This document shows, one piece after another, positions 4,173 to 59,401 of a DNA stretch of 64,000 nucleotides (the stretch's first letter is position 1; every line of letters starts with the position of its first letter). Below the pieces are notes generated by a model. That model was not told where the DNA came from. It saw only the letters and a program-made list of their open reading frames with translations, and ran no database searches. This stretch comes from Myxococcaceae bacterium. GTDB taxonomy: Bacteria > Myxococcota > Myxococcia > Myxococcales > Myxococcaceae. The stretch spans positions 192,001-256,000 of the forward strand of contig JAXLYB010000002.1 in NCBI GenBank assembly GCA_046351675.1. Reading direction: 5' to 3'. The position numbers and the translations under genes were made by a program.

Positions 4173-4834
4173 CGATCGCCGCGACCAGGCCGCCGCAACG
4201 ACACGAACTGCTCGTACTGCGCCCCGCTCAACGTCGCGCGCGCGGCCTTGTCGGTCTGACGCTGCGCCGCCATCCAGTCCTTCACGGCATCCGCCGAGCG
4301 CGAGTCGAACACCGCCTGGCGCGCATCGGCCTCGGCCTTGAGCCGCTCGACCATCAGCGAGCGTTGATCAACCGACAGCCCCGCACCGTCGAGGAAGGCG
4401 CTGAGCTTCTCGGCCTGCGCCGCCTGGCCCCGCGCGCGGGCTTCGTCGCGCTTGCGCTGTTCCTCGGCGCGCAGCTCGCGCATCACGTCGGCCACCATCG
4501 CGCGGCCACCGTCGGGGTCGAGCCCGAGCGCGTTGCCCTGGCCGAGCGCGCGCACTTCGTCGCGCAGGCGCGCCACTTCGAGCGCCAGCGTCGGATCGAC
4601 GCCGCCGTCGAGCACCGCCACGCCGCGCCGCTCGAGCAGCGTCACGCGGTCCCACAGGTTGCGGGAGTCGTCTTCGAGCAGCTCCACGCGCTTTCGCAGC
4701 TCGAGCATCTCGTCGAGGTTGACTGAAGGCGGGGCTGGCGGTGGCGCGGGAGGTGCCGGCGGCTCGCGAAGAAGAGCGACGCCCAGTGCCACCAGGGCGA
4801 CGAGCAGGCTCGCGATGGGGAGCAGGCGATTCAC
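4169..4834 (-). CDS. hypothetical membrane-anchored coiled-coil protein (GTG start chosen; ORF-track start 4930 reads through a REP element)
   Basis: N-terminal anchor LLPIASLLVALVALGVALL, a proline-rich spacer and a charged coiled-coil. The 32 codons upstream are REP sequence (LTPTLSPGGEGD). Confidence 0.5.
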   Translation of the reverse strand: MNRLLPIASLLVALVALGVALLREPPAPPAPPPAPPSVNLDEMLELRKRVELLEDDSRNLWDRVTLLERRGVAVLDGGVDPTLALEVARLRDEVRALGQGNALGLDPDGGRAMVADVMRELRAEEQRKRDEARARGQAAQAEKLSAFLDGAGLSVDQRSLMVERLKAEADARQAVFDSRSADAVKDWMAAQRQTDKAARATLSGAQYEQFVSLRRPGRGDR

Positions 4835-29103: not shown

Positions 29104-30189
29104 ATGAGTCTCGAGCGCCCCAGGGTGCTGGTGGTCGACGACGACGAGATCATTCGCCGTCTGGTGAAGGTCACGCTCGCGCAGAAGTACGAGGTCTTCG
29201 AGGCGCCCGACGCGCCCACCGCCATCGAGCTGGTCGGCCAGCACGACATCGAGGTGGTGGTCATCGACGTGATGATGCCCGGCATGACCGGCATGGAAGC
29301 GGTGCCGAAGCTGCGGGAACGCGCGAAGAACCCCATCTACGTGCTGTTGCTCACCGCGCTCCACGACCAGCAGAGCCGCAACCAGGGGCTCGAGGCCGGG
29401 GCCGATGACTACCTGGCCAAGCCGATGGACCGCAAAGAGCTCGTCTTGCGCGTGCAGAACTTCGTGCGCCTCGGCCGGCAGGAACGGCTCATTCGTCAGC
29501 AGCTCGAGTCACTGAGCCAGCTGCAGGCGCTCAAGGACGACCTCACGGCGCTGCTGGTGCACGACCTGCGCAACCCGCTCACCGCGGTGTCGAGCGCGTT
29601 CCAGTTGATGGAGAGCTCGATTCCCGAGAGCGAGCGCGAGCTCTTCAACCTCGGGAAGAACGCGCTCAAGCGGGTGATGGAAGGCGTCAGCGACCTGCTC
29701 AAGGTGCGCATGCTCGAGAAGGGCGAGCTGCAGCTCGAGCGCTCGACGTTCGAGCCGAAGGAGCTCGCCGAGGAAGTGGTGCAGACCCTCAAGGCCGCGG
29801 CGCTCGACGGGAAGATCGACGTGGCGGTGGTGTCCCCGCCGGGCGTCACGTTGAACGCCGACGCGAAGCTGCTCAAGCGCGCGCTCGAGAACCTGTTGAT
29901 CAACGCGTTCCGCCACACGCGCGGGAAGGTCGACGTCATCATCGAGCCCACCGCCGACGCGGTGCTGGTGTCGGTCGCCGACCGGGGACCCGGGGTGCCT
30001 GACTTCTTGAAGGGCGAGCTGTTCGACATGTTCGGCTCGCTCAAGCTCAAGGAGAGCGGCGGTCGGCGCGGGCATGGGCTGGGGCTGTACCTGGTGCGGC
30101 TCGTGGCGCGAGCACACGGCGGCGATGTGGTGGTGAAAGACCGTGAAAGCGGCGGCGCCGTCTTCCAGCTCAGCTTCCCGAAGTCGTAG
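29104..30189 (+). CDS. hybrid response regulator-histidine kinase (REC + HisKA + HATPase_c)
   Basis: REC domain residues VLVVDDDE and VIDVMMPGMTG, H-box LVHDLRNPL, and G-boxes DRGPGV and GHGLGLYL. The ATG at 29104 was preferred over a TTG at 29053. Confidence 0.85.
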   Translation: MSLERPRVLVVDDDEIIRRLVKVTLAQKYEVFEAPDAPTAIELVGQHDIEVVVIDVMMPGMTGMEAVPKLRERAKNPIYVLLLTALHDQQSRNQGLEAGADDYLAKPMDRKELVLRVQNFVRLGRQERLIRQQLESLSQLQALKDDLTALLVHDLRNPLTAVSSAFQLMESSIPESERELFNLGKNALKRVMEGVSDLLKVRMLEKGELQLERSTFEPKELAEEVVQTLKAAALDGKIDVAVVSPPGVTLNADAKLLKRALENLLINAFRHTRGKVDVIIEPTADAVLVSVADRGPGVPDFLKGELFDMFGSLKLKESGGRRGHGLGLYLVRLVARAHGGDVVVKDRESGGAVFQLSFPKS

Positions 30190-30208
30190 CGCCCTCTCCT
30201 CTTCAGAG

Positions 30209-31658
30209 CTGACGATCCAACACAACTTGTGAATCGCGCGCGGGCATGATCTCGCTCGCAAATGCACGCACTTCCTCCGATTCACGACGAGTTCCGAGAC
30301 TGCGAGTTTCCCGACCTTCGTCTTCTCGACCGAGTCGTGAGGATTGCGAGACAGCTCGAGGTGGACCCGAAGGCGAGCCTGCCCGAGTCGTTTCGAAACC
30401 CGTCGCAGCTCGAAGGCACGTACCGGTTCTTCGGTAACGAGCGCATTGACCTGGGCACCGTCGTCGCCGGCCACGTGAGCAACACGGTCCGACGCGTCGA
30501 TGTCGCGAAGCGCGCGCTGGCCATTCACGACACGACATCGTTCGTCTTCGACGGAGAGCGAGACGGACTCGGAATCGTCGACCGCTCGCAGCAAGGCTTC
30601 TATGCCCACGCGTGTCTCGCTGTTTCCGCGGATGGTGTGCGGCAACCTCTTGGATTGCTCGCGCTCGACACGTGGATGCGCACGAAGAAGAAGGGCAAGC
30701 GCACGACGGAAGCGCGACGCAACGAGAAGGAGCTCGAGTCCGACCGTTGGTTGGAGCAGTCGCTTGCCGTCGAAGAGCTCGTGTCGAACTCGACGGTGCT
30801 CATCCACGTCGAGGACCGCGAGGGCGATATCTACGAGAGCCTCGCGACGCGGGCGCAGCGAGGGATGCACTTCATCGTTCGCGCGTCGTCAAACCGAGTT
30901 GTGAAACTCGAAGGCGGCGGCACACAGAACGTCCTCGAATCCGCTCGCACGCTTCCGTTGCGCTCGAAGCGAGAGGTCGACCTCTCGGAGCGTCACAATC
31001 CGTTCGCGCACCTCCCAAAGACTTCGCATGGCAATCGCCAGGCGCGCACGACGCAGGTTGAGATTCGCTCCGGCGAGCTGACGCTGCGACGGCCGCAGAG
31101 AGCTCTCCGGTCGTCTGACTTGCCCAAAGAGCTTCGCCTCAACGTGGTGCACGTCGGCGAGGTCGATGCGCCTCCAGGCGAGAAGGCGGTCGAGTGGCTC
31201 CTCTTCACGACCGAGCCCGTCGATTCAGCGACCGATGCTGAGCAAGTCGTCGACTTCTACCGAACGCGATGGCTCATCGAGGAATACTTCAAAGCGCTCA
31301 AGACGGGCTGCAAGTACGAAGACAAAAGGCTCGAGAGCGGCCCCGCGCTCCTCAACGCGCTCGGTGTTTTTGCCATCGTCGCGTGGCGGCTTCTCGTCCT
31401 GCGCTTCATCGACCGAACGGCGGACGACAGCCCAGCCGAGTCCGTCGCGACAGACGCCGAAATCGCAGTGCTCGTCGCGAAGAAGCGCCTGAAGCCGAAC
31501 GCTACAGCGCGCGAATTCACCACCGCACTCGCTCGCTACGGCGGTCACCTGCCGCAGAACGGACCACCCGGCTTACTCATCCTCTGGCGAGCGCTCCGTG
31601 CACTGCAGCAAGTCGCGGAAGGCTGGTCCTTGGCTCAGGAAATGTGATCAATCCTCAG
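30209..31658 (+). mobile_element. IS4-family (IS50/Tn5-like) insertion sequence, about 1450 bp, with 10-bp direct target duplication CTCTTCAGAG
   Basis: Left end CTGACGATCCAACACAACTTGT resembles the Tn5 outside end CTGACTCTTATACACAAGT. The reverse complement of the right end (CTGAGGATTGATCACATT) pairs with the left end at 12 of 18 positions. Flanks 30199-30208 and 31659-31668 are identical. GC content is lower than that of the flanking DNA. Confidence 0.8.
30262..31647 (+). CDS. IS4 family transposase (Tn5 Tnp-like DDE)
   Basis: 461 aa. C-terminal YRTRWLIEEYFKALKTGCKYEDKRL is the IS4/Tn5 YREK signature region. The N-terminus resembles the Tn5 Tnp DNA-binding region. Confidence 0.9.
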   Translation: MHALPPIHDEFRDCEFPDLRLLDRVVRIARQLEVDPKASLPESFRNPSQLEGTYRFFGNERIDLGTVVAGHVSNTVRRVDVAKRALAIHDTTSFVFDGERDGLGIVDRSQQGFYAHACLAVSADGVRQPLGLLALDTWMRTKKKGKRTTEARRNEKELESDRWLEQSLAVEELVSNSTVLIHVEDREGDIYESLATRAQRGMHFIVRASSNRVVKLEGGGTQNVLESARTLPLRSKREVDLSERHNPFAHLPKTSHGNRQARTTQVEIRSGELTLRRPQRALRSSDLPKELRLNVVHVGEVDAPPGEKAVEWLLFTTEPVDSATDAEQVVDFYRTRWLIEEYFKALKTGCKYEDKRLESGPALLNALGVFAIVAWRLLVLRFIDRTADDSPAESVATDAEIAVLVAKKRLKPNATAREFTTALARYGGHLPQNGPPGLLILWRALRALQQVAEGWSLAQEM

Positions 31659-31713
31659 CTCTTCAGAGGAGAGGGTCGGGGTGAGGAGAGAAGCGTCGGG
31701 CGTTGGAGTCGCC

Positions 31714-34700
31714 TCAGCGCTTGAACAGCCCCTTCAGCGTCGCCCAGAACCCACCCGCGCGCTTCTCGAGCTCTTCACCGCGCTCCTTGTTCACCGCGGC
31801 CGCCTTCTCAGCCGTGATGCCGAGCTTCTGCGCCGCCTCTTCGCTCGTGTAGCGCGTGGCCAACGTCGCCCGCACCACCGAGCGCGTCTTGAACTCCCGC
31901 GCCTCGACGCGCAGCACGCACTCGGCGTCGAGCGACAGCGTCACCGCCACCTGCACCGCGCCCGCGGGCCCCTTCGGCAACCCGGTGATCAACACCGAGC
32001 CGAGGAACTCGTTGCCCGCCACGTTCGAGTCCTCGCCCTGGTACACGAGCACCTCGAGCTCGGTCTCCCCGTCCTTCTGGGTCGAGAGGCCGAACGACTT
32101 CGTGACGGGCAGCGCGGTGTTGCGCTCGATGAGCCGGTGGAACACGCCGCCCGGCCGACCGACGCCCACCGTCATCGGCACCACGTCGATGAGCACCAGC
32201 GGCGAGACCTTGTCGAGGGTGCCGCTGTACAGCGCGGCGCCGAGCGCGACGGCCTCGTCGGCGTTGACCGACGCGTGCGCGGGCTTCTTGAAGACCGCCT
32301 TCAACTTCTCGCGCACCAGCGGCATGCGGCTCTGCCCGCCGACGAGGATGATGTCGTCGACCTGCGCGGGCTTGAGGCGCGCGTCGAGCAGCACGTCCTG
32401 CACGGCCTGGATGGTGCGGTCGACCAGCTCGCCACACGCGGCCTCGAGCTCGGCGCGCGTGACGGTGGTGCGCAGGTCGAGCGGCTGGCCGCCGTCCATC
32501 TCCAGCATCGGCAGGTGCACGTCGAAGCTGGTGCGCTCGGACAGGGCCATCTTCGCCTTCTCGGCGACCTCGTTGATGCGCGAGAGCGCGATGCGGTCGC
32601 CGCCGAACGGGCGCTTGTGCCACGAGGTGTAGCGATCGAGCAGGAGCTTCACGACCTGCGCGTCGAAGTCGACGCCGCCGAGGAACACGTCGCCCCCCGT
32701 CGCGAGCACCTCGAAGACGTTCTTGTCGAGCTTGAGGAGCGTGGCGTCGAAGGTGCCGCCGCCGAGGTCGTAGACGAGCACGGTCTTCGTCAGGTCGCGG
32801 CCCATGCCGAACGCGAGCGCGGCGGCGGTGGGCTCGTTCAGCACGCGCTCGACCTTGAGGCCGGCCATCGCGCCCGCGCGCCGCACCGCCTCGCGCTGCG
32901 CCTCGGAGTAGTACGCCGGGCACGTCACCACCGCGCGCGTGACGGGCGTGCCCAGTGATTGCTCGGCGAAGTCGCGGCATTCCTTGAGCACCAGCGCCTG
33001 CACCTCGTCGAGCGAGAGCACCTTGCCGCCCAGCTTCACGGCAGCGCGGCGATCGGGGCCGGCGACGATGGAGAAGTGCGCGCGTTCCTTCACCTGCTGC
33101 ACGGTGGCGTTGTCGAAGTCGCGGCCCACGAGGCGCTTGGCGCCGGTGATGGACTGCGTCGGGTTGAGCACCATCTGCTGCTTCGCGCGGTGGCCGATGA
33201 GGAGGCGGCCCTGCGTGGTGAGCGCGACCACCGAGGGAATCGTGTTGTAGCCATCGCGCGAGACGACGATGTGCGGGCGGCCCTTGTTGAGCACCGCGAC
33301 CGCGGAGTTCGTCGTGCCGAGGTCGATGCCGATGAGCGCGCCGGTGGCGTCGCCGCCGACCTTCACGTCCTTGAGGTACACCGGGCCGGCCGGCACGGGC
33401 GCCGTCTCGAGCGCGGGCGGCGGACCTTCGAGCTTCGGAGCGAGGACTGGCGCGGAGGGCGCGAGCGCCGGCGGAGGCGCGGCGGGGACCGCTTCGAGCT
33501 GCTCGAGGTCGACGTCGAAGCCCGACGGCCCCGAGGAGAAGGGAATGTCTTCGGCCGGCGCGGTGGTGTCGGACAGCAGTGAGTCGAGGTCGAGCTCGAT
33601 GTCGCGTGACGGGTCGGTGTCGGCGGTCGCGTCCGAGAAGATGTCGGACGGGTCGACGTCGAGGGGCGCCTCTTCCTCGGCAGCCACCGCGGGAGGCGGA
33701 GGCGGCGCTGCGGCGGTGAAGAAGGAGCTGAAGTCGGCGGGCTCGTCGGCGTCGGGCGCGGGCGGAGCCTCGGTCGCGGGCACGACCCCGTACGCGGCGG
33801 TGCGCGGACTCTCTGGCACGGGTGCGGCCGGCGCGGGCACGACTCCGTACGCGGCGGTGCGCGAGCCGTCAGCCGGTGCACTCGTGGGAGCGGGGGCAGG
33901 TGCAACTCCAGCCGTCGCTGCGCGCGGGCCAGCGGCCTGACCAGCCTGCGTCGCGGGCGCAACGCCAGGCGGAGCCGCGGGGCTCACAGGCGGAACTTCA
34001 GGCGTCGCGGCGCGCGGGACAGCGGGTGCCGAAGCAACTCCAGGCGCGAGAGCCGTGGCGGGCGGCGCGGCCGCAACGCCAGGCGTTGGCGCTGGAGCCG
34101 CTGGTGCTGCAGGCGCAACTCCGGCACTCGCGGCGCGCGAGGCAGCCGATGTTGCGGGCGCAACTCCAGGCGTCGCAGCGCGTGGGGCCGATGTCGCGGC
34201 AGGAACTCCAGGCGTCGCAGCACCCGAGGTCGCAGGCGCAACTCCCGGCGTCGCGGTGCGCGGGGCCGATGTCGCGGCAGGAACTCCAAGCGTTGCAGCA
34301 CCCGGGGTCGCAGGCGCAACTCCCGGCGTCGCAGCGCGCGGGGCCGATGTCGCGGGAGGAACTCCAGGCGTCGCAGCACCTGGGGTCGCAGGCGCAACTC
34401 CCGGCGTCGCAGCGCGCGGGGCCGATGTCGCGGAAGGAACTCCAGACGTCGGAGCACCTTGTGTCGCAGGCGGAACTCCGGTCGCCGCAGCGCGCGGGGC
34501 CGATGTCGCGGCAGGAACTCCAGGCGTCGCAGCACCTGGGGTCGCAGGCGCAACTCCCGGCGTCGCAGCGCGCGGGGCCGATGTCGCGGCAGGAACTCCA
34601 GACGTCGGAGCACCTTGTGTCGCAGGCGGAACTCCGGTCGCAGAGGCTGAGGGAGGAACTGCAGGCGTTGGAGCACCCGCGGTCGGCGCAACTCCCGACG

Positions 34701-35508
34701 TCGCAGCAGCACGCGGGGCCGCTGTCGCGGGAGGAACTCTAGGCGTCGGAGCGCCCGCCGTCGCAGCGCGCGGGGCCGAGGTCGCGGCAGGAGCTCCAGG
34801 CGACGGAGCACCGCCGGTCCCAGGCGCAGGCTGAGCGGTCGCGGGCACGACGCCGTAGGCCGCGGTGCGCGGACCGGCGGCTGGAACTGCGGGAGGCGCA
34901 GCGGTCGCAGGCACGACGCCATAGGTCGCGGTGCGCGGAGGAATGACCCCCGACGTCTCCGCGGTGAAGAGGGACCCGACGTCTTCCTGATCAGGCCGCT
35001 CCGGCTCAGCGCGCGGAGGAATCACCCCCGACGTCTCCGCCGTGAAGAGCGAGCCCACGTCTTCCTGCGCCGGCCGCGGCGGCGGCACGATGCCCGACGT
35101 CGCCGAGGTGAAGAGCGAGTCGAGCTCCACGGCCGGAGGCGCGCTGGGCGGAGGAGGAGGCGCTGGAGGCCGCGCCGCCGGCTTCCCGAGCATGCGATCG
35201 ACCAGCTCGCGTGACGCGGGGTCGAGCGTGACGAACTGCAGCCCCATGCCCGCGGGCCCGCCGGGATCATTCTCCCCGCGCACCCACCGCACGATGGCCG
35301 TGCCCTGCAGCACGCGCTGCCCCGAGGCGATCTCCACCTTGAAGTTCAGCTCGGTGCCGACGGGCTTCGGCTCCCGCGTGCGAATGAACATGCCGCCGTC
35401 GGACAAGTTGGTCGCGTACTTCGACGCGAACTCGTCGAGGCCCTTGTGGGCCAGCTTCACCAACAGCCCGACCTGTTTGCGAACGTTCGAGCGGTGGTCG
35501 TTCGACAC
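31714..35508 (-). CDS. PilZ domain-Hsp70 (DnaK-like) fusion protein with a long Pro/Ala/Thr-rich repetitive linker
   Basis: N-terminal PilZ motifs RSNVR (RxxxR) and DGGMFI (DxSxGG). About 550 aa of low-complexity repeats follow. A complete Hsp70 NBD (IGIDLGTTNS, DLGGGTFD) and substrate-binding domain complete the protein. Confidence 0.85.
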   Translation of the reverse strand: MSNDHRSNVRKQVGLLVKLAHKGLDEFASKYATNLSDGGMFIRTREPKPVGTELNFKVEIASGQRVLQGTAIVRWVRGENDPGGPAGMGLQFVTLDPASRELVDRMLGKPAARPPAPPPPPSAPPAVELDSLFTSATSGIVPPPRPAQEDVGSLFTAETSGVIPPRAEPERPDQEDVGSLFTAETSGVIPPRTATYGVVPATAAPPAVPAAGPRTAAYGVVPATAQPAPGTGGAPSPGAPAATSAPRAATAGAPTPRVPPATAAPRAAATSGVAPTAGAPTPAVPPSASATGVPPATQGAPTSGVPAATSAPRAATPGVAPATPGAATPGVPAATSAPRAAATGVPPATQGAPTSGVPSATSAPRAATPGVAPATPGAATPGVPPATSAPRAATPGVAPATPGAATLGVPAATSAPRTATPGVAPATSGAATPGVPAATSAPRAATPGVAPATSAASRAASAGVAPAAPAAPAPTPGVAAAPPATALAPGVASAPAVPRAATPEVPPVSPAAPPGVAPATQAGQAAGPRAATAGVAPAPAPTSAPADGSRTAAYGVVPAPAAPVPESPRTAAYGVVPATEAPPAPDADEPADFSSFFTAAAPPPPPAVAAEEEAPLDVDPSDIFSDATADTDPSRDIELDLDSLLSDTTAPAEDIPFSSGPSGFDVDLEQLEAVPAAPPPALAPSAPVLAPKLEGPPPALETAPVPAGPVYLKDVKVGGDATGALIGIDLGTTNSAVAVLNKGRPHIVVSRDGYNTIPSVVALTTQGRLLIGHRAKQQMVLNPTQSITGAKRLVGRDFDNATVQQVKERAHFSIVAGPDRRAAVKLGGKVLSLDEVQALVLKECRDFAEQSLGTPVTRAVVTCPAYYSEAQREAVRRAGAMAGLKVERVLNEPTAAALAFGMGRDLTKTVLVYDLGGGTFDATLLKLDKNVFEVLATGGDVFLGGVDFDAQVVKLLLDRYTSWHKRPFGGDRIALSRINEVAEKAKMALSERTSFDVHLPMLEMDGGQPLDLRTTVTRAELEAACGELVDRTIQAVQDVLLDARLKPAQVDDIILVGGQSRMPLVREKLKAVFKKPAHASVNADEAVALGAALYSGTLDKVSPLVLIDVVPMTVGVGRPGGVFHRLIERNTALPVTKSFGLSTQKDGETELEVLVYQGEDSNVAGNEFLGSVLITGLPKGPAGAVQVAVTLSLDAECVLRVEAREFKTRSVVRATLATRYTSEEAAQKLGITAEKAAAVNKERGEELEKRAGGFWATLKGLFKR
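34060..34800. repeat. 78-bp (26-codon) tandem repeat array, about 9 copies, inside the PilZ-Hsp70 linker
   Basis: Unit ggcaggaactccaggcgtcgcagcacccgaggtcgcaggcgcaactcccggcgtcgcggtgcgcggggccgatgtcgc encodes ATSAPRAATPGVAPATPGAATPGVPA on the minus strand. Confidence 0.8.
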
Positions 35509-47718: not shown

Positions 47719-47757
47719 TCTCCCTCTCCTCTTCAGAGGAGAGGGTCGGGGTGAGGA
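47719..47757. repeat. REP-like element copy (direct)
   Basis: tctccctctcctcttcagaggagagggtcggggtgagga. Confidence 0.8.
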
Positions 47758-52058: not shown

Positions 52059-55000
52059 TCAGCGAATGGTGACGACCACGCGGTAGGCGAACTGCGAGTT
52101 GGCGCCGCTGGTCGAGAAGCCCTTCACCTGCACGTACCAGGTCACGCTCGTGGTGCCGGTGTTCTTCACGCCGGTGTGGAGCGGGCTGGTGCCGGTGCCA
52201 TCGACGAGCGAGCAGTTGCCGCGGCCGTCGTCGTCGCTGGTGGCCAGCGACGTGCCGGTGGGCCCGAGAATCGAGATGACGCTGTCGACGCCGAGGCTCT
52301 CGCAGGTCTCGGTGTTGCCCTCGATGATTTCAGCGCGCACCGCCTTGCCGGCCGGCACGGTGATGGCCCACACGTCGACGTCGGTCGCCAACGAGTGGTC
52401 GCCGCCGCCGAAGCCCTCGGGGAAGGTGAGCAGGCGCGTCTCGGCGGTGGCGGTGGTGTCGTTGACGCCCGAGATGCCGACGCCCTCGGTCTCGGTGCCG
52501 CGCGGCGCCTCGATGGCCGCCTCGAGGAAGTAGCGGGTGAGGGTCGCGTCGTTCCCGCTCTCCTCGACCTGGATGTAATAGGTGCCGACCGGCAGCAGGG
52601 TGACGATGGCGCTGCAGCTCGAGATGCCCGAGGTGGTGTCGGTGAGCATCGCCATGCCGTTGCTGGTGAGCAGGCGCAGCGTGGTGGTGCCGGTCTGGCA
52701 ATCGCCCGCCGAGGTGAAGGTCTCGAAGCGCATCACCGTCGCCGCGGCCACCGACACGCGGAACACGTCGACGTCGCCCACCGTGCCGATGGCGCCGCGG
52801 AGCATCGTGGTGCCGGTGATCTGCACCGTCGAGCTGTCGGCCTGCTGGCGCGTGTTGTTCGGCTCGATCTCATCGACGGCGTTGATGCGGCACATGTTGT
52901 TGCAGCCGTCGGTGTTGATCATGTTGCCGTCGTCGCATTCCTCGACCGCCGGCGTGAGGATGCCGTCGCCGCACACGATGGGCGTGAAGCGCACCTCGAG
53001 GCCGTAGCCGGTGATGAGGTCGGTGTCGCCGTAGTCCATCACCTGCACGTAGACCGTCGCGCCCGGAGCCAGCGAGAGGCTCGCCGTCGAGCAGCGATCG
53101 AGCGAGCCGTTGCGGTCGTCGTTCGACACCAGCACCGCGCGCGTCGCGTCGTACACCGTCATGCCGGTGTCGATGCTCGTGCCGCACGCCACGCCCTGGC
53201 CGTAGCCACTCGCGCGGTTCCACGTGTCGAGCTGCAGCGTCTGCGGCACCGCGGTGTCGTTGGTGATGGCGAACACGTCTTCGTCGCCGGCGGGCGAGAT
53301 GGCCGCGAGCACCCCCTGCGTGCCGTTCGACGCGCGCACCGCGCCGTTGGCGTTGGCGCGGGTGATGGCGCTCGCGTCGACGTCGTTGCCCACGATGCCG
53401 CTGCCGCCGGTCGAGGGCGTGCCGTCTTCGTTCGGCTCGGTCTCGGTGGGCTCGGTGCGGCAGCCCGCGCTGCACCCGTCGAGGCTGCGGGTGTTGGCGT
53501 CGTCACACTGCTCGTTGCCGTCGATGAACCCGTCGCCGCAGGTCTGGGTGCGCATCACGCACATCGAGGGCATGGTGCCGGTGCAGCTCCAGCCGACCTC
53601 CACGGTGCAGGTCGCCGAGCAGCCGTCGCCCGGCGTGGTGTTGCCCTGGTCGCAGCCCTCGGTGCTCGCCTTCACGCCGTCGCCGCAGGTGGTGGTGCAC
53701 GTCGAGGGCATGCCGGTGCAGGTGAAGCCGGTCTCCACGGTGCAGGTCGCCGAGCAGCCGTCGCCCGGCGTGGTGTTGCCCTGGTCGCAGGTCTCGCCGT
53801 TCAAGATGCGCCCGTCGCCGCAGATGCCGCGGCACACCGAGGGGTTGGTGCCGGTGCACGCGTAGCCGCTCTCGATGGTGCAGGTCGCCGAGCAGCCGTC
53901 GTTGTTCGCCAGGTTGCCGTCGTCGCACGCCTCGGTCGCGGCCTTCGCGCCGTCGCCGCAGCGAATGGTGCACATCGAGGGCGCGCCGGTGCACGAGTAG
54001 CCCGCCTCGACCTGGCACGTCGCGGAGCAGCCGTCGTTGGGCAACAGGTTGCCGTCGTCGCAGGTCTCGCGCGCGCCGGTCAGGCCGTCGCCACACACCG
54101 CGGTGCACACCGACGGAGAGCCGGTGCACGTCGAGCCCGCCTCGACCACGCACGCGCTCGAGCAGCCGTCGCCGTTGGCGGTGTTGCCGTCGTCGCACGC
54201 CTCGTTGCCCTGTTTCGTCCCGTCACCGCAGTTGCCGCTGCACACCGAGGGCATGCCGCTGCACGCGTAGCCCGCCTCGATGGCGCAGGTGGTGGAGCAG
54301 CCGTCGCCCGCCGCCACGTTGCCGTCGTCGCAGCGCTCGGCGCCGCTGATCAACCCGTCGCCGCAGCGCGTGACGCAGCGCGAGGGCACGCCCGCGCACT
54401 GGTAGCCGGTCTCGACGGTGCACGTCGCCGAGCAGCCGTCGCCCGCGGTGGTCCCCATGTCGTCGCAGCCCTCGGCCCCCACGGGAATGCCGTCGCCGCA
54501 CGTGGTGGTGCAGGTCGAGGGCGTGCCGGTGCAGGAGAAGCCGAGCTCCTTGAGGCAGTTGGCCGAGCAGCCGTCACCGGCGGTGCGGTTGCCGTCGTCG
54601 CAGTCTTCCGACGGGTTCTGCATGCCGTCGCCGCACGAGCTGGTGCACTGGCTGGGCATCATGGTGCACGCGTAGCCGGGCTCGACGCGGCAGCCCGCGG
54701 AGCAGCCATCGCCGCCCATCGCGTTGCCGTCGTCACAGGTCTCGGTGCCGGCGACCACGCCGTTGCCGCAGCGGGTGACGGTGCAGTTGGTGTCGCAGCC
54801 GTCGCCGTTGGTGGCGTTGCCGTCGTCGCACGCCTCGGTGCCGGTCTTCACGCCGTTGCCGCAGCCGGTGGGCCGGCAGGTGCCGCCCGCGCCGTCGTCG
54901 CAGCCGTCGTCGTTGGTGTGGTTGCCGTCGTCGCACGCCTCGCCCATCTGCTGCACGCCGTCGCCGCACGCGCCCGCGGCGCAGCGGTTCATCGCGCACA

Positions 55001-57841: not shown

Positions 57842-59164
57842 ATGGCGACGCGCTTCTCCTTCGAGCTGGCGAAGGTGGCCGAGAAGTTCTCGGTGAAGCT
57901 CGACGCGCGCGGCCTGATTCCCCTCGACGACGCGCGGCGCTGGCTCGCACAGACCACCGCGTACGTGCGCGAGAGCGCTGATCAGACCTGGGCCGCGCTG
58001 CTCTCGCTCGAGTCGGCCGAGGAGTTCGTCCGCGCGGCGTCGGCGCTCGAATGGAAGTTCCCCATGCTGCGCGGGTGGGACAACGAAGACGCGGTGCGCC
58101 GCTACGGCGAGGGCGCGCTGCCGTGGCTCGAGACGCTGCTCGACCGCATCAAGGGGCGCGTGGGCGCGATTCCCGCGCTGCCGTTCAACTTCGTGGGCTC
58201 GCACCTCCTGGCGCTCGGGGGCGACGCGGCGGGCGCTGCGCTGCGCGTGAAGCTGTCGAGCGACGCCGACCCCGATGGGCTGGGCTTCGTCGTCGACTGG
58301 CTCAAGCGGCAGAAGGCCGACGGGTGGGCGGGGCTGGTGCGCCTGGCCGAGAGCGGCAACCCCGAGGCGAAGCGCGCGCTCGACGTGCTCGAGAAGCGCG
58401 ACCCGAAGGGCGTGGCGCGGGTGCTCAAGCAGGTGGGCGTGGCGGTCGCGAAGAAGAAGAAGGCCGAGCTGACGGTGGCGGGCGTGCTGCACGTGCTCGA
58501 CGCGGCCGCCGCGGCGCCGATGGGCGCGCGCATTCCGTGGCCGTCGCTGCACCCGACGTCAGGGCACTTCGAGCCGCACGCGTGGCGGGTGGTGACGGTG
58601 CGCCAGGAGAAAGGCGACCACTGGGGCGTGCTCATCGAGGTGGTGCAGGGCGACCTGCTCGACCCGAAGGTGAAGTGGCCGGCGGTGGTGCAGCGCTACA
58701 CGTACGGCTCGAAGGTGCAGTCGGGCGGGCGGTACGTGCTCGACGCGAAGCGGTTGAAGGTGAACCGGCGCACGAAGGTGACCGAGGAGCTCATCGAGAC
58801 GCTCGACTTGCGCGCCGGGCAGTCGGTGACCGGCGCGGTGGAGTCGTGGAAGGACGTGCTGCTGATTCGCCATGCGCTCGCGAGGGACCCTGGCGTGTTC
58901 TTCGCGCCCGCGGAGAAGGCGGCGAAGGTGCTCAAGGTGCCGAAGGGGAAGGTCGTGTCCGTCGTGACGAAGTGGGAGCACGTCGATGGCACGGCGCTCG
59001 GGAAGGACGAGCACGCGCGGTTGCCGTCGAGCTCGGTGGCGTGGAAGAGCCTCGCCGAGGCGTTGGTCGCGAGGGACGCGTCGAAGTTCCAGGCGGGGGC
59101 GGTGAACACCGAGTGGCGCTCGTTGCTCCCTCTCCCTGCGACGGCGGGGAGAGGGTCGGGGTGA
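57842..59164 (+). CDS. hypothetical protein
   Basis: 440 aa, Lys/Ala-rich centre. The last 15 codons are REP-encoded (LPLPATAGRGSG). Confidence 0.6.
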   Translation: MATRFSFELAKVAEKFSVKLDARGLIPLDDARRWLAQTTAYVRESADQTWAALLSLESAEEFVRAASALEWKFPMLRGWDNEDAVRRYGEGALPWLETLLDRIKGRVGAIPALPFNFVGSHLLALGGDAAGAALRVKLSSDADPDGLGFVVDWLKRQKADGWAGLVRLAESGNPEAKRALDVLEKRDPKGVARVLKQVGVAVAKKKKAELTVAGVLHVLDAAAAAPMGARIPWPSLHPTSGHFEPHAWRVVTVRQEKGDHWGVLIEVVQGDLLDPKVKWPAVVQRYTYGSKVQSGGRYVLDAKRLKVNRRTKVTEELIETLDLRAGQSVTGAVESWKDVLLIRHALARDPGVFFAPAEKAAKVLKVPKGKVVSVVTKWEHVDGTALGKDEHARLPSSSVAWKSLAEALVARDASKFQAGAVNTEWRSLLPLPATAGRGSG

Positions 59165-59399
59165 GGGGCTGGAATTGCCACCTGCGCCCGACGCTTCTCT
59201 CCTCACCCCAACCCTCTCCTCTGAAGAGGAGAGGGAGCAAGTCGAAGTTCCAGGCGGGGGCGGTGAACACCGAGTGGCGCTCGCTGCTCCCTCTCCCTGC
59301 GACCGCGGGGAGAGGGTCGGGGTGAGGGGCTGAAATTGCCACCTGCGCCCGACGCTTCTCTCCTCACCCCAACCCTCTCCTCTGAAGAGGAGAGGGAGC
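59078..59399. repeat. 161-bp tandem duplication (2 copies), each containing one direct and one inverted REP element plus the last 85 bp of the upstream CDS
   Basis: gtcgaagttccaggcgggggcggtgaacaccgagtggcgctcg...gaagaggagagggagcaa occurs at 59080 and 59241 with 3 mismatches. Confidence 0.85.
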
Positions 59400-59401
59400 A
59401 A

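Follow-up and report, generated by a model that had tools for sequence, protein, structure and literature searches.

We describe an insertion sequence (IS) related to Tn5/IS50 that interrupts a repetitive extragenic palindromic (REP) element in a 64,000-nucleotide stretch of DNA from a Myxococcaceae bacterium (contig JAXLYB010000002.1; the entire stretch is hereafter called the window). In all likelihood, the element is a recently expanded IS whose insertions are almost confined to the dyad centre of a single REP subtype, CCCTCTCCTC-NNNN-GAGGAGAGGG, by a Tn5-type capture of duplex target DNA. A sequence-only reading of the window had allowed for a chance event in case further copies of the IS showed no association with REPs. 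This is not what was found: all independently sampled junctions of the same IS, as well as those of its relatives at 48-68 % identity, lie at REP apexes, and hence the insertion is not a matter of chance. Rather, it exemplifies a Myxococcota lineage of Tn5-like IS elements with specificity for REP apexes.

The repeat family that provides the target is readily delimited within the window. The motif GGAGAGGGTCGGGGTGAGG, with up to three mismatches, matches 16 times in the window and not once in shuffled sequences, and hairpins of the form CCCTCTCC-N(0-20)-GGAGAGGG are likewise found 16 times where none is expected. Including the interrupted copy, 17 units of 22-28 nt are present in the 64 kb, corresponding to about one per 4 kb, all of them at gene boundaries and several as inverted pairs. 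The units begin with CCCTCTCC, finish with GGGGTGAGG(G/A)G and fall into two types: the TC type, in which CCCTCTCCTC-NNNN-GAGGAGAGGG is followed by the tail TCGGGGTGAGGAG (five units, counting the one interrupted by the IS), and the C type, in which CCCTCTCCCC...GGGGAGAGGG is followed by TCGGGGTGAGGGG (12 units). Changes in the inner stem (CTC/GAG versus CCC/GGG) go together with changes in the final bases of the tail at the 3' side (GGTGAGGAG versus GGTGAGGGG), which suggests that the whole unit including its tail is copied as a single piece. These repeats are short (within 20-40 bp), abundant and extragenic imperfect palindromes, whereas the terminal GTAG or CGTC tetranucleotide tag of REPs associated with RAYT-type transposases (PMC3733652) is absent from the units in the window; the term REP is therefore used descriptively here. 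At 59080-59401, there is a tandem duplication (2.0 copies, 98 % identity) of a 161-bp unit that contains two REPs as an inverted pair.

In silico removal of the IS together with one copy of the flanking 10-mer yields CCCTCTCCTCTTCAGAGGAGAGGG, which is identical to the intact REPs at 92-115 and 47722-47745. The duplicated 10 bp comprise the loop and the inner stem, and the staggered cuts fall 3-4 bp into the stem on either side. Thus, the precise insertion proposed by the sequence-only reading holds for the REP apex, but the cuts are not confined to the loop as it had stated, and its coordinates prove right to within one base, the outer arm CCCTCTC starting at 30192, one base to the right of 30191. 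The 10-bp target duplication that it had also proposed is present as CTCTTCAGAG on both sides, with a length that rests on IS ends set at CTGA/TCAG: because the target is palindromic (CTC...GAG), moving these ends outward by 1-3 bp gives duplications of 8, 6 or 4 bp with the same empty site. The CTGA/TCAG ends are supported by their match to the outside end (OE) and inside end (IE) of Tn5 as well as by the ends of relatives that reside in non-palindromic DNA (L025). Moreover, in two Archangium copies lying one base apart (L012 versus L015) only CTGAGG/CCTCAG boundaries regenerate the canonical 22-nt REP.

The element itself is an intact IS of the IS4 family, IS50/Tn5 subgroup, and the outline given from the letters alone, a 1450-bp element with a single 461-aa transposase and imperfect terminal inverted repeats, is confirmed. 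The transposase, encoded by the one long open reading frame (ORF) of the IS, matches the Pfam models Tnp_DNA_bind (PF14706, 3e-15) and DDE_Tnp_1 (8e-10), the NCBIfam model transpos_IS4_3 with 302 bits against a cutoff of 160 and the IS4/Tn5 N-terminal DNA-binding model; NF049926 and NF033590 both lie above their cutoffs. A PDB search retrieved Tn5 transposase chains (E = 5e-33, residues 12-384). An AlphaFold2 model built on 75 homologues reaches a mean predicted local distance difference test (pLDDT) of 95 and superimposes on full-length Tn5 transposase-DNA complexes (4dm0/1mus) with a template modelling (TM) score of 0.83 over about 460 residues at 27-28 % identity, and this superposition contains no extra domain beyond the Tn5 fold. 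Residues D90, D185 and E340 align with D97, D188 and E326 of Tn5, and Y333, R336, E340 and K347 with Y319, R322, E326 and K333, thereby reproducing the Y-(2)-R-(3)-E-(6)-K (YREK) signature; the DDE and YREK residues are invariant in 75 of 75 homologues. From these conserved residues, a cut-and-paste transposition via a DNA hairpin intermediate would be expected. The left end of the IS resembles the OE and the right end the IE of Tn5, the latter including TTGATCA, with right-end sequence kept in relatives; the established OE and IE sequences served for this comparison. The IS begins with CTGACGATCCAACACAACTTG (30209) and ends with ...GGAAATGTGATCAATCCTCAG (31658), that is, with CTGACGATCC... 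on the left and GGATTGATCACATTTCC, as reverse complement, at the other end. The termini CTGACGATCC... and CTGAGGATTG... form imperfect inverted repeats that are identical at 17 of 27 positions and start with 5'-CT(G), 5'-CT ends being typical for the IS10 and IS50 subgroups (PMC2266710). At residues 141-156 (window 30682-30729), a basic loop, TKKKGKRTTEARRNEK, takes the place of the shorter acidic loop PDDPADADEK of Tn5; it is 8 aa longer and adjoins the Tn5 target-contact residues K160 and K164. The closest relatives retain its KGKR, and across the family this loop position carries a basic motif.

Further copies of the same IS were found in metagenomes, where at least 21 contigs encode the exact transposase; ten of these were retrieved, plus one more (L070). 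The IS copies are 99.86-100 % identical over positions 1-1450 and the identity ends there, and this near-identity reflects a recent burst of the element. Unique flanks on the contigs with an identical transposase are of four different kinds on the left and of six on the right, and every flank starts with a REP half according to ccctctcCTCnnnnGAG-IS-CTCnnnnGAGgagaggg, with the apex variants TTCA, CAAG, TGAA and TGCG. Since the pairing of left and right flanks across a multicopy repeat of 1.45 kb is arbitrary or chimeric in short-read assemblies, junctions were counted instead of pairs. At least six independent junctions of the same IS were obtained in this way, all of which (6/6) are located at a REP apex and belong to the TC subtype. 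One site carries the reverse-complement apex CTCTGAAGAG and lacks a tail on the right, so that the IS seems to insert in either orientation with respect to the asymmetric tail. The chance of a single random insertion hitting a REP apex amounts to about 2.7e-4, and with the TC subtype accounting for 5 of 17 REPs in the window, the chance of six TC sites out of six is (5/17)^6 = 6e-4. The bare motif CTCNNNNGAG has 25 occurrences in the window, mostly outside REPs. In the NCBI metagenome-assembled genome (MAG) 'Myxococcaceae bacterium' that contains the window, the same protein is annotated three times, in addition to one truncated copy.

A degenerate scan for IS ends in the metagenomes of the Joint Genome Institute (JGI) added one real junction (L070) and one chance match (L069). 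L070 (1-1932), with a normal REP half at its left junction, is identical to the window IS for 1-981 and continues with unrelated sequence, representing either a truncated copy or an assembly chimera. L087 (1-1874) carries on its right the reverse complement of its left flank (138/141 nt), to be explained either by a fold-back of the assembly (k = 141) at the palindromic target or by a genuine inverted duplication.

The association extends to relatives of the element. A scan of GTDB species representatives other than the window's own genome yielded 54 loci, mostly from Myxococcota MAGs, with a best match of 65 % identity. At 48-68 % identity, the set comprises L011, five copies in Archangium sp. 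5N606, P0009, P0004, P0011, P0048 and P0036, and at least 14 of 14 junctions lie at apexes of CCCTCTCC-type REPs; the duplications measure 9 or 10 bp, and insertions occur in both orientations relative to the REP tail. In L011, the target is a 27-nt REP with an imperfect stem (CCCTCTCCCT-GCGGAGCGG-GGAGAGGG, with the duplication in the middle), and the five Archangium copies occupy CCCTCT-CCCGCGAGG-GAGAGGG or a one-base shift thereof, one of them opposite to the REP tail. At least four sites of P0009 and those of P0004 and P0011 are likewise apexes of CCCTCTCC-type REPs. P0048 is exactly centred in CCCTCTC-CCGCAAGCGG-GAGAGGG with a 10-bp duplication, and P0036 resides in a longer palindrome with the same CCCTCTCC core. 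At sites with perfect stems, 9-11-bp stems are centred on the duplication, an arrangement seen at no more than 0.1 % of control positions in the same loci.

Relatives at 37-47 % identity target other repeats. L016 and L024 are inserted in GGGCGGGG-ACGAG-CCCCGCCC with the duplication GGACGAGCC, L043 in GTCCCT-GGCG-AGGGAC, L029, L033 and L046 in CCCACGTGGG, and P0064 in CCCATGGG-like sites. In the low-GC MAG MFD09495, ten copies share one fixed position of a palindromic element of about 95 bp, GGTGTCACTCTCC...GGAGAGTGACACC. No palindrome was found at the insertion point of L025 (Bryobacteraceae MAG) and L045, and the perfect-stem palindrome score failed for L011, owing to its imperfect stem, and for the MFD09495 relatives, where the conserved position is not a hairpin. 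A 'hairpin apex' as a universal rule for the wider family is ruled out by this position. With ends set at CTGA/TCAG, duplications measure 10 bp in the window IS and P0048 and mostly 9 bp in the other readable relatives, followed among more distant ones by 8 bp in L043, L025 and L045 and 10 bp in L029; target duplications in the IS4 family range about 10 bp (PMC2266710). Most relatives' duplications share the form 5'-CC...GG-3' (not L011, L016/L024, L025 and L045), and the window IS uses CTC...GAG.

Some of these loci show additional arrangements. L019 (2905-5947; MFD09495) contains a 37 %-identical relative twice, with 62 bp between the two copies, at both mirror-image target positions of a single element of about 95 bp. 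The duplications of L039 and L041, from the same MAG, do not match and their repeat arms are opposed, a pattern that recombination or inversion between copies of the IS would be expected to leave. In L016 (about 2800-2860 and 4376-4450), the GGGCGGGG-ACGAG-CCCCGCCC palindrome is embedded in tandem units of about 40 bp (...CCCCTACGGAATCGGGGAACTGAGGGCGGGGAC...) that resemble a cluster of bacterial interspersed mosaic elements (BIMEs).

The insertion process that we propose follows Tn5. The transposase would bind the OE-like and IE-like ends and form a two-fold symmetric synaptic dimer of the Tn5 type, with excision of the element by DDE/YREK hairpin cut-and-paste. The REP would be captured as a B-form duplex, each monomer reading one arm of the palindrome, and the two 3'-OH ends would attack phosphates 10 bp apart and symmetric about the dyad, on the top strand after CCCTCTC and on the bottom strand at the mirror position, whereupon gap repair would duplicate the 10-bp apex. 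In the target model for Tn5, a 9-bp site occupies a channel across the dimer interface and its flanks wrap the protein (PMC2229646); hence, a palindromic target would naturally be favoured by a symmetric dimer of this type. REPs are intergenic, the present one being situated between convergent stop codons, and recur about once per 4 kb; targeting them may therefore provide the IS with many harmless landing sites and thus with a safe harbour. The transposase itself may determine the specificity, as indicated indirectly by the change of target type with the transposase clade. No Rfam match was obtained in the whole window, and a promoter and terminator scan of the locus gave nothing above shuffled sequences; hence neither a guide nor an antisense RNA is indicated. 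The lack of an extra domain, the short non-coding ends of the IS (53 bp before the ORF and 11 bp after it) and the missing Rfam match together argue against an accessory reader or a guide RNA.

The main competing explanation is that the transpososome recognizes not the base sequence but a distorted or extruded palindrome, be it a cruciform, a hairpin apex or a bendable centre, which we regard as possible yet rather unlikely. Several observations favour it and thereby weigh against a readout of duplex sequence. Between the conserved outer CCCTCT box and the cut lie 6-7 nt where the REP has 22 nt, and 10 nt where it has 27 nt (L011), and insertion stays within 1 bp of the dyad despite these differences in REP length; such tracking of the dyad would fit recognition of a centre or structure at least as well as a fixed base readout. 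In addition, unrelated palindromes are targeted by different clades (GGGCGGGG-ACGAG-CCCCGCCC by L016/L024, GTCCCT-GGCG-AGGGAC by L043, CCCACGTGGG by L029), and the loops vary freely among targets of the same IS. On the other hand, the window IS is directly observed at the TC subtype only, despite C-type REPs being more than twice as common in the window, and the MFD09495 relative uses a fixed position of a repeat without a local hairpin (stem of 2-4, not above background). Moreover, the attacked phosphates would come to lie in different arms of a cruciform, a geometry at odds with a Tn5-type stagger of 9-10 bp on B-form DNA.

Further points temper the reading of sequence-specific duplex capture. 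Most additional copies of the IS derive from short metagenome contigs with chimeric flank pairing, so that only junctions count. The IS-free allele whose comparison had been suggested was not found in related sequences: an exact look-up of the upstream kinase led to four further contigs, all of which end inside the IS, and the empty site CCCGAAGTCGTAGCGCCCTCTCC-N4-12-GGAGAGGG found no match in the JGI metagenomes that were scanned for it. The empty site is thus a putative one, reconstructed from identical intact REPs elsewhere. The loop at residues 141-156 was considered as a specificity determinant but also occurs in relatives without REP targets, which leaves it as a lead only, and both the transposition activity and the source of the specificity are inferred. 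Taking all this into account, we retain the capture of a TC-type REP as duplex as the preferred reading.

Tethering by a host factor, in which a REP-bound protein similar to gyrase, integration host factor (IHF) or RAYT recruits the transpososome, appears improbable. REPs of E. coli do bind gyrase and other proteins (PMC3733652), and a transposase devoid of an extra DNA-binding domain would be compatible with such recruitment. Nevertheless, a subtype-specific insertion that is precise to 1 bp or less is hard to obtain by tethering, the specificity shifts with the transposase clade, including non-palindromic positions of repeats, and for IS1397 and ISKpn1 the transposases themselves set the REP specificity (cited in PMC1525189). 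Selection after random insertion, by which only copies in harmless intergenic REPs would survive, accords with the intergenic location of REPs and the usual purging of IS insertions from genes, yet is very hard to credit, as it cannot produce the same base-pair position at 20 or more sites nor the lack of copies in other intergenic DNA, and the copies, at 99.9-100 % identity, are young. An equally remote notion is that the REP halves belong to the mobile element as extended inverted repeats and that REPs are derivatives or footprints of the IS: 30192-30224 and 31643-31675 indeed form a 33-nt inverted repeat with 82 % complementarity, but the apex bases differ between copies as expected of target duplications, the asymmetric tail is found now to the left and now to the right of the IS, the palindromes around relatives with similar IS ends are unrelated, and REPs lack an OE/IE-like transposase-binding sequence and far outnumber the IS.

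A broader proposition, on which we are evenly divided, would apply to the whole Myxococcota lineage of this Tn5-fold transposase: near-absolute specificity for the dyad centre of palindromic repeats in the host without accessory protein, extra domain or guide RNA, re-tuned several times, namely to two subtypes of CCCTCTCC-type REPs, to GGGCGGGG-ACGAG-CCCCGCCC, to GTCCCT-GGCG-AGGGAC and to one fixed position of the 95-bp GGTGTCACTCTCC element. If true, the lineage would constitute a natural series from which target reading by a Tn5-type transpososome could be learned and on which the design of site-directed Tn5 derivatives could draw. Tn5 serves as the textbook example of a near-random transposase and as a standard tool for mutagenesis and tagmentation, and its reading of the target is still poorly defined; close structural homologues that hit a single base-pair position, with a target that shifts with the clade, offer a direct comparative route to the residues involved. 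Furthermore, such IS elements explain breaks of metagenome assemblies at REPs and mark REPs as hot spots of recombination and rearrangement.

The features of the locus and the REP units of the window are compiled in Table 1. The stop codon of the upstream kinase gene (MFO0595057.1 in NCBI) is located at 30187-30189, 2 bp ahead of the REP, and without the IS the intergenic gap to the convergent gene would be 64 bp. A lower GC content of the IS had been noted at the outset and is confirmed (0.626 versus 0.710 in the remaining window), and the GC content at third codon positions (GC3) is 0.77 in the transposase gene versus 0.93 and 0.83 in the two neighbouring genes. The recent acquisition deduced at that time is plausible as far as a recent date is concerned, given the near-identical copies and the lower GC and GC3, whereas a horizontal origin remains conjectural. 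The downstream Hsp70-like protein possesses a long Pro/Ala-rich N-terminal half derived from 78-bp tandem repeats (34157-34844; 6 copies, 91 %). Elsewhere, at 53559-54985, a long array of 135-bp (also 270- and 405-bp) coding repeats with 68-72 % matches probably encodes a Cys-rich repeat protein on the minus strand.

Table 1. Features of the interrupted REP locus and REP units in the window.
Feature	Position	Strand	Remarks
Upstream gene, hybrid sensor histidine kinase/response regulator	29104-30189	+	Pfam Response_reg, HisKA, HATPase_c on identical protein
Outer left REP arm CCCTCTC	30192-30198	+	read from sequence
Left target-site duplication copy CTCTTCAGAG (REP inner stem and loop)	30199-30208	+	10 bp
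IS50/Tn5-like IS	30209-31658	+	1450 bp; 99.86-100 % identity in 10 metagenome contigs over IS 1-1450, no further
Left terminal inverted repeat, OE-like, CTGACGATCCAACACAACT...	30209-30235	+	13/19 to Tn5 OE
Transposase gene, 461 aa, catalytic D90, D185, E340	30262-31647	+	ORF, Pfam, structure
Right terminal inverted repeat, IE-like, CTGAGGATTGATCACATTT...	31632-31658	-	13/19 to Tn5 IE, conserved TTGATCA
Right target-site duplication copy CTCTTCAGAG	31659-31668	+	read from sequence
Outer right REP arm GAGAGGG (31669-31675) and asymmetric REP tail TCGGGGTGAGGAG (31676-31688)	31669-31688	+	
Convergent downstream gene, 1264 aa, Hsp70-like C-terminal part, Pro/Ala-rich repeats	31714-35508	-	ORF
Intact TC-type REPs	92-115, 47722-47745, 59212-59235, 59373-59396		
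C-type REPs	4860, 10333, 12665, 15685, 17554, 38532, 40795, 40903, 47796, 49702, 59128, 59289		

REP targeting as such is a known behaviour. Tobes and Pareja described REP-specific insertion for members of the IS3, IS110, IS4, IS256 and IS5 families (PMC1525189), and the present association corresponds to their type 1: the REPs left intact at 92 and 47722 have the very sequence of the reconstructed site, and the junctions sampled occupy the same REP position, both for the same IS (6/6) and for relatives at 48-68 % identity (at least 14/14). The statement of the sequence-only reading that REP targeting is atypical for the IS4/IS50 group stands in so far as literature searches, which did not cover ISfinder, revealed no report of it for the IS50 subgroup or in the Myxococcota, but it overlooks a precedent in the IS4 family, ISRm22 of Sinorhizobium meliloti, all copies of which lie at the axis of a REP palindrome with a reported 6-bp repeat (PMC1525189). 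De Palmenaer et al. placed ISRm22 in the IS4Sa subgroup and reported no such specificity for the IS50 subgroup (PMC2266710). What is new, as far as no report was found, is the occurrence in the IS50/Tn5 subgroup and in the Myxococcota, both of which are thereby added to the IS lineages that use REPs as safe harbours.

ISRm22 is the closest parallel, being an IS4-family DDE element with all copies in REPs at the palindrome axis and between convergent genes (PMC1525189; the specificity also in PMC2266710). It differs from the window IS by its IS4Sa affiliation, the 6-bp reported duplication and another host phylum and REP, and it is not a Tn5-type element with a PF14706 N-terminal domain (Pfam listed: Transposase_11 only). 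Among the IS110 family, IS621, ISPpu9/ISPpu10 and ISPa11 have all copies at one fixed REP position as well, but these elements lack inverted repeats and encode DEDD recombinases guided by bridge/seek RNA (PMC11208160, PMC11187229), whereas the non-coding regions of the window IS, at 53 and 11 bp, are too short for a guide RNA and give no Rfam match. IS1397 and ISKpn1 of the IS3 family likewise insert in the central part of enterobacterial REP/palindromic unit (PU) hairpins, a specificity that has been attributed to the transposase. They differ in their two-ORF IS3-type transposase, a circle-junction intermediate and duplications of 3-4 bp (cited in PMC1525189).

Finally, the window IS shares with Tn5/IS50 the fold of the whole protein with its N-terminal end-binding domain, DDE triad and YREK motif. 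Further common traits are a single ORF that runs inward from the OE-like end, termini starting with 5'-CTG, an OE-like and an IE-like end that are not identical to each other, TTGATCA within the inner-type end, and a length of about 1.45 kb. An internal Met matching the start of the Tn5 inhibitor is not evident in the transposase of the window. The duplication is apparently 10 bp, a length that is ambiguous within a palindrome, as opposed to 9 bp in IS50 and in the closest relatives. Above all, Tn5 inserts near-randomly with only a weak symmetric 9-bp consensus (PMC1525189, PMC2229646), whereas the window IS has been encountered at the apex of a single REP subtype only.

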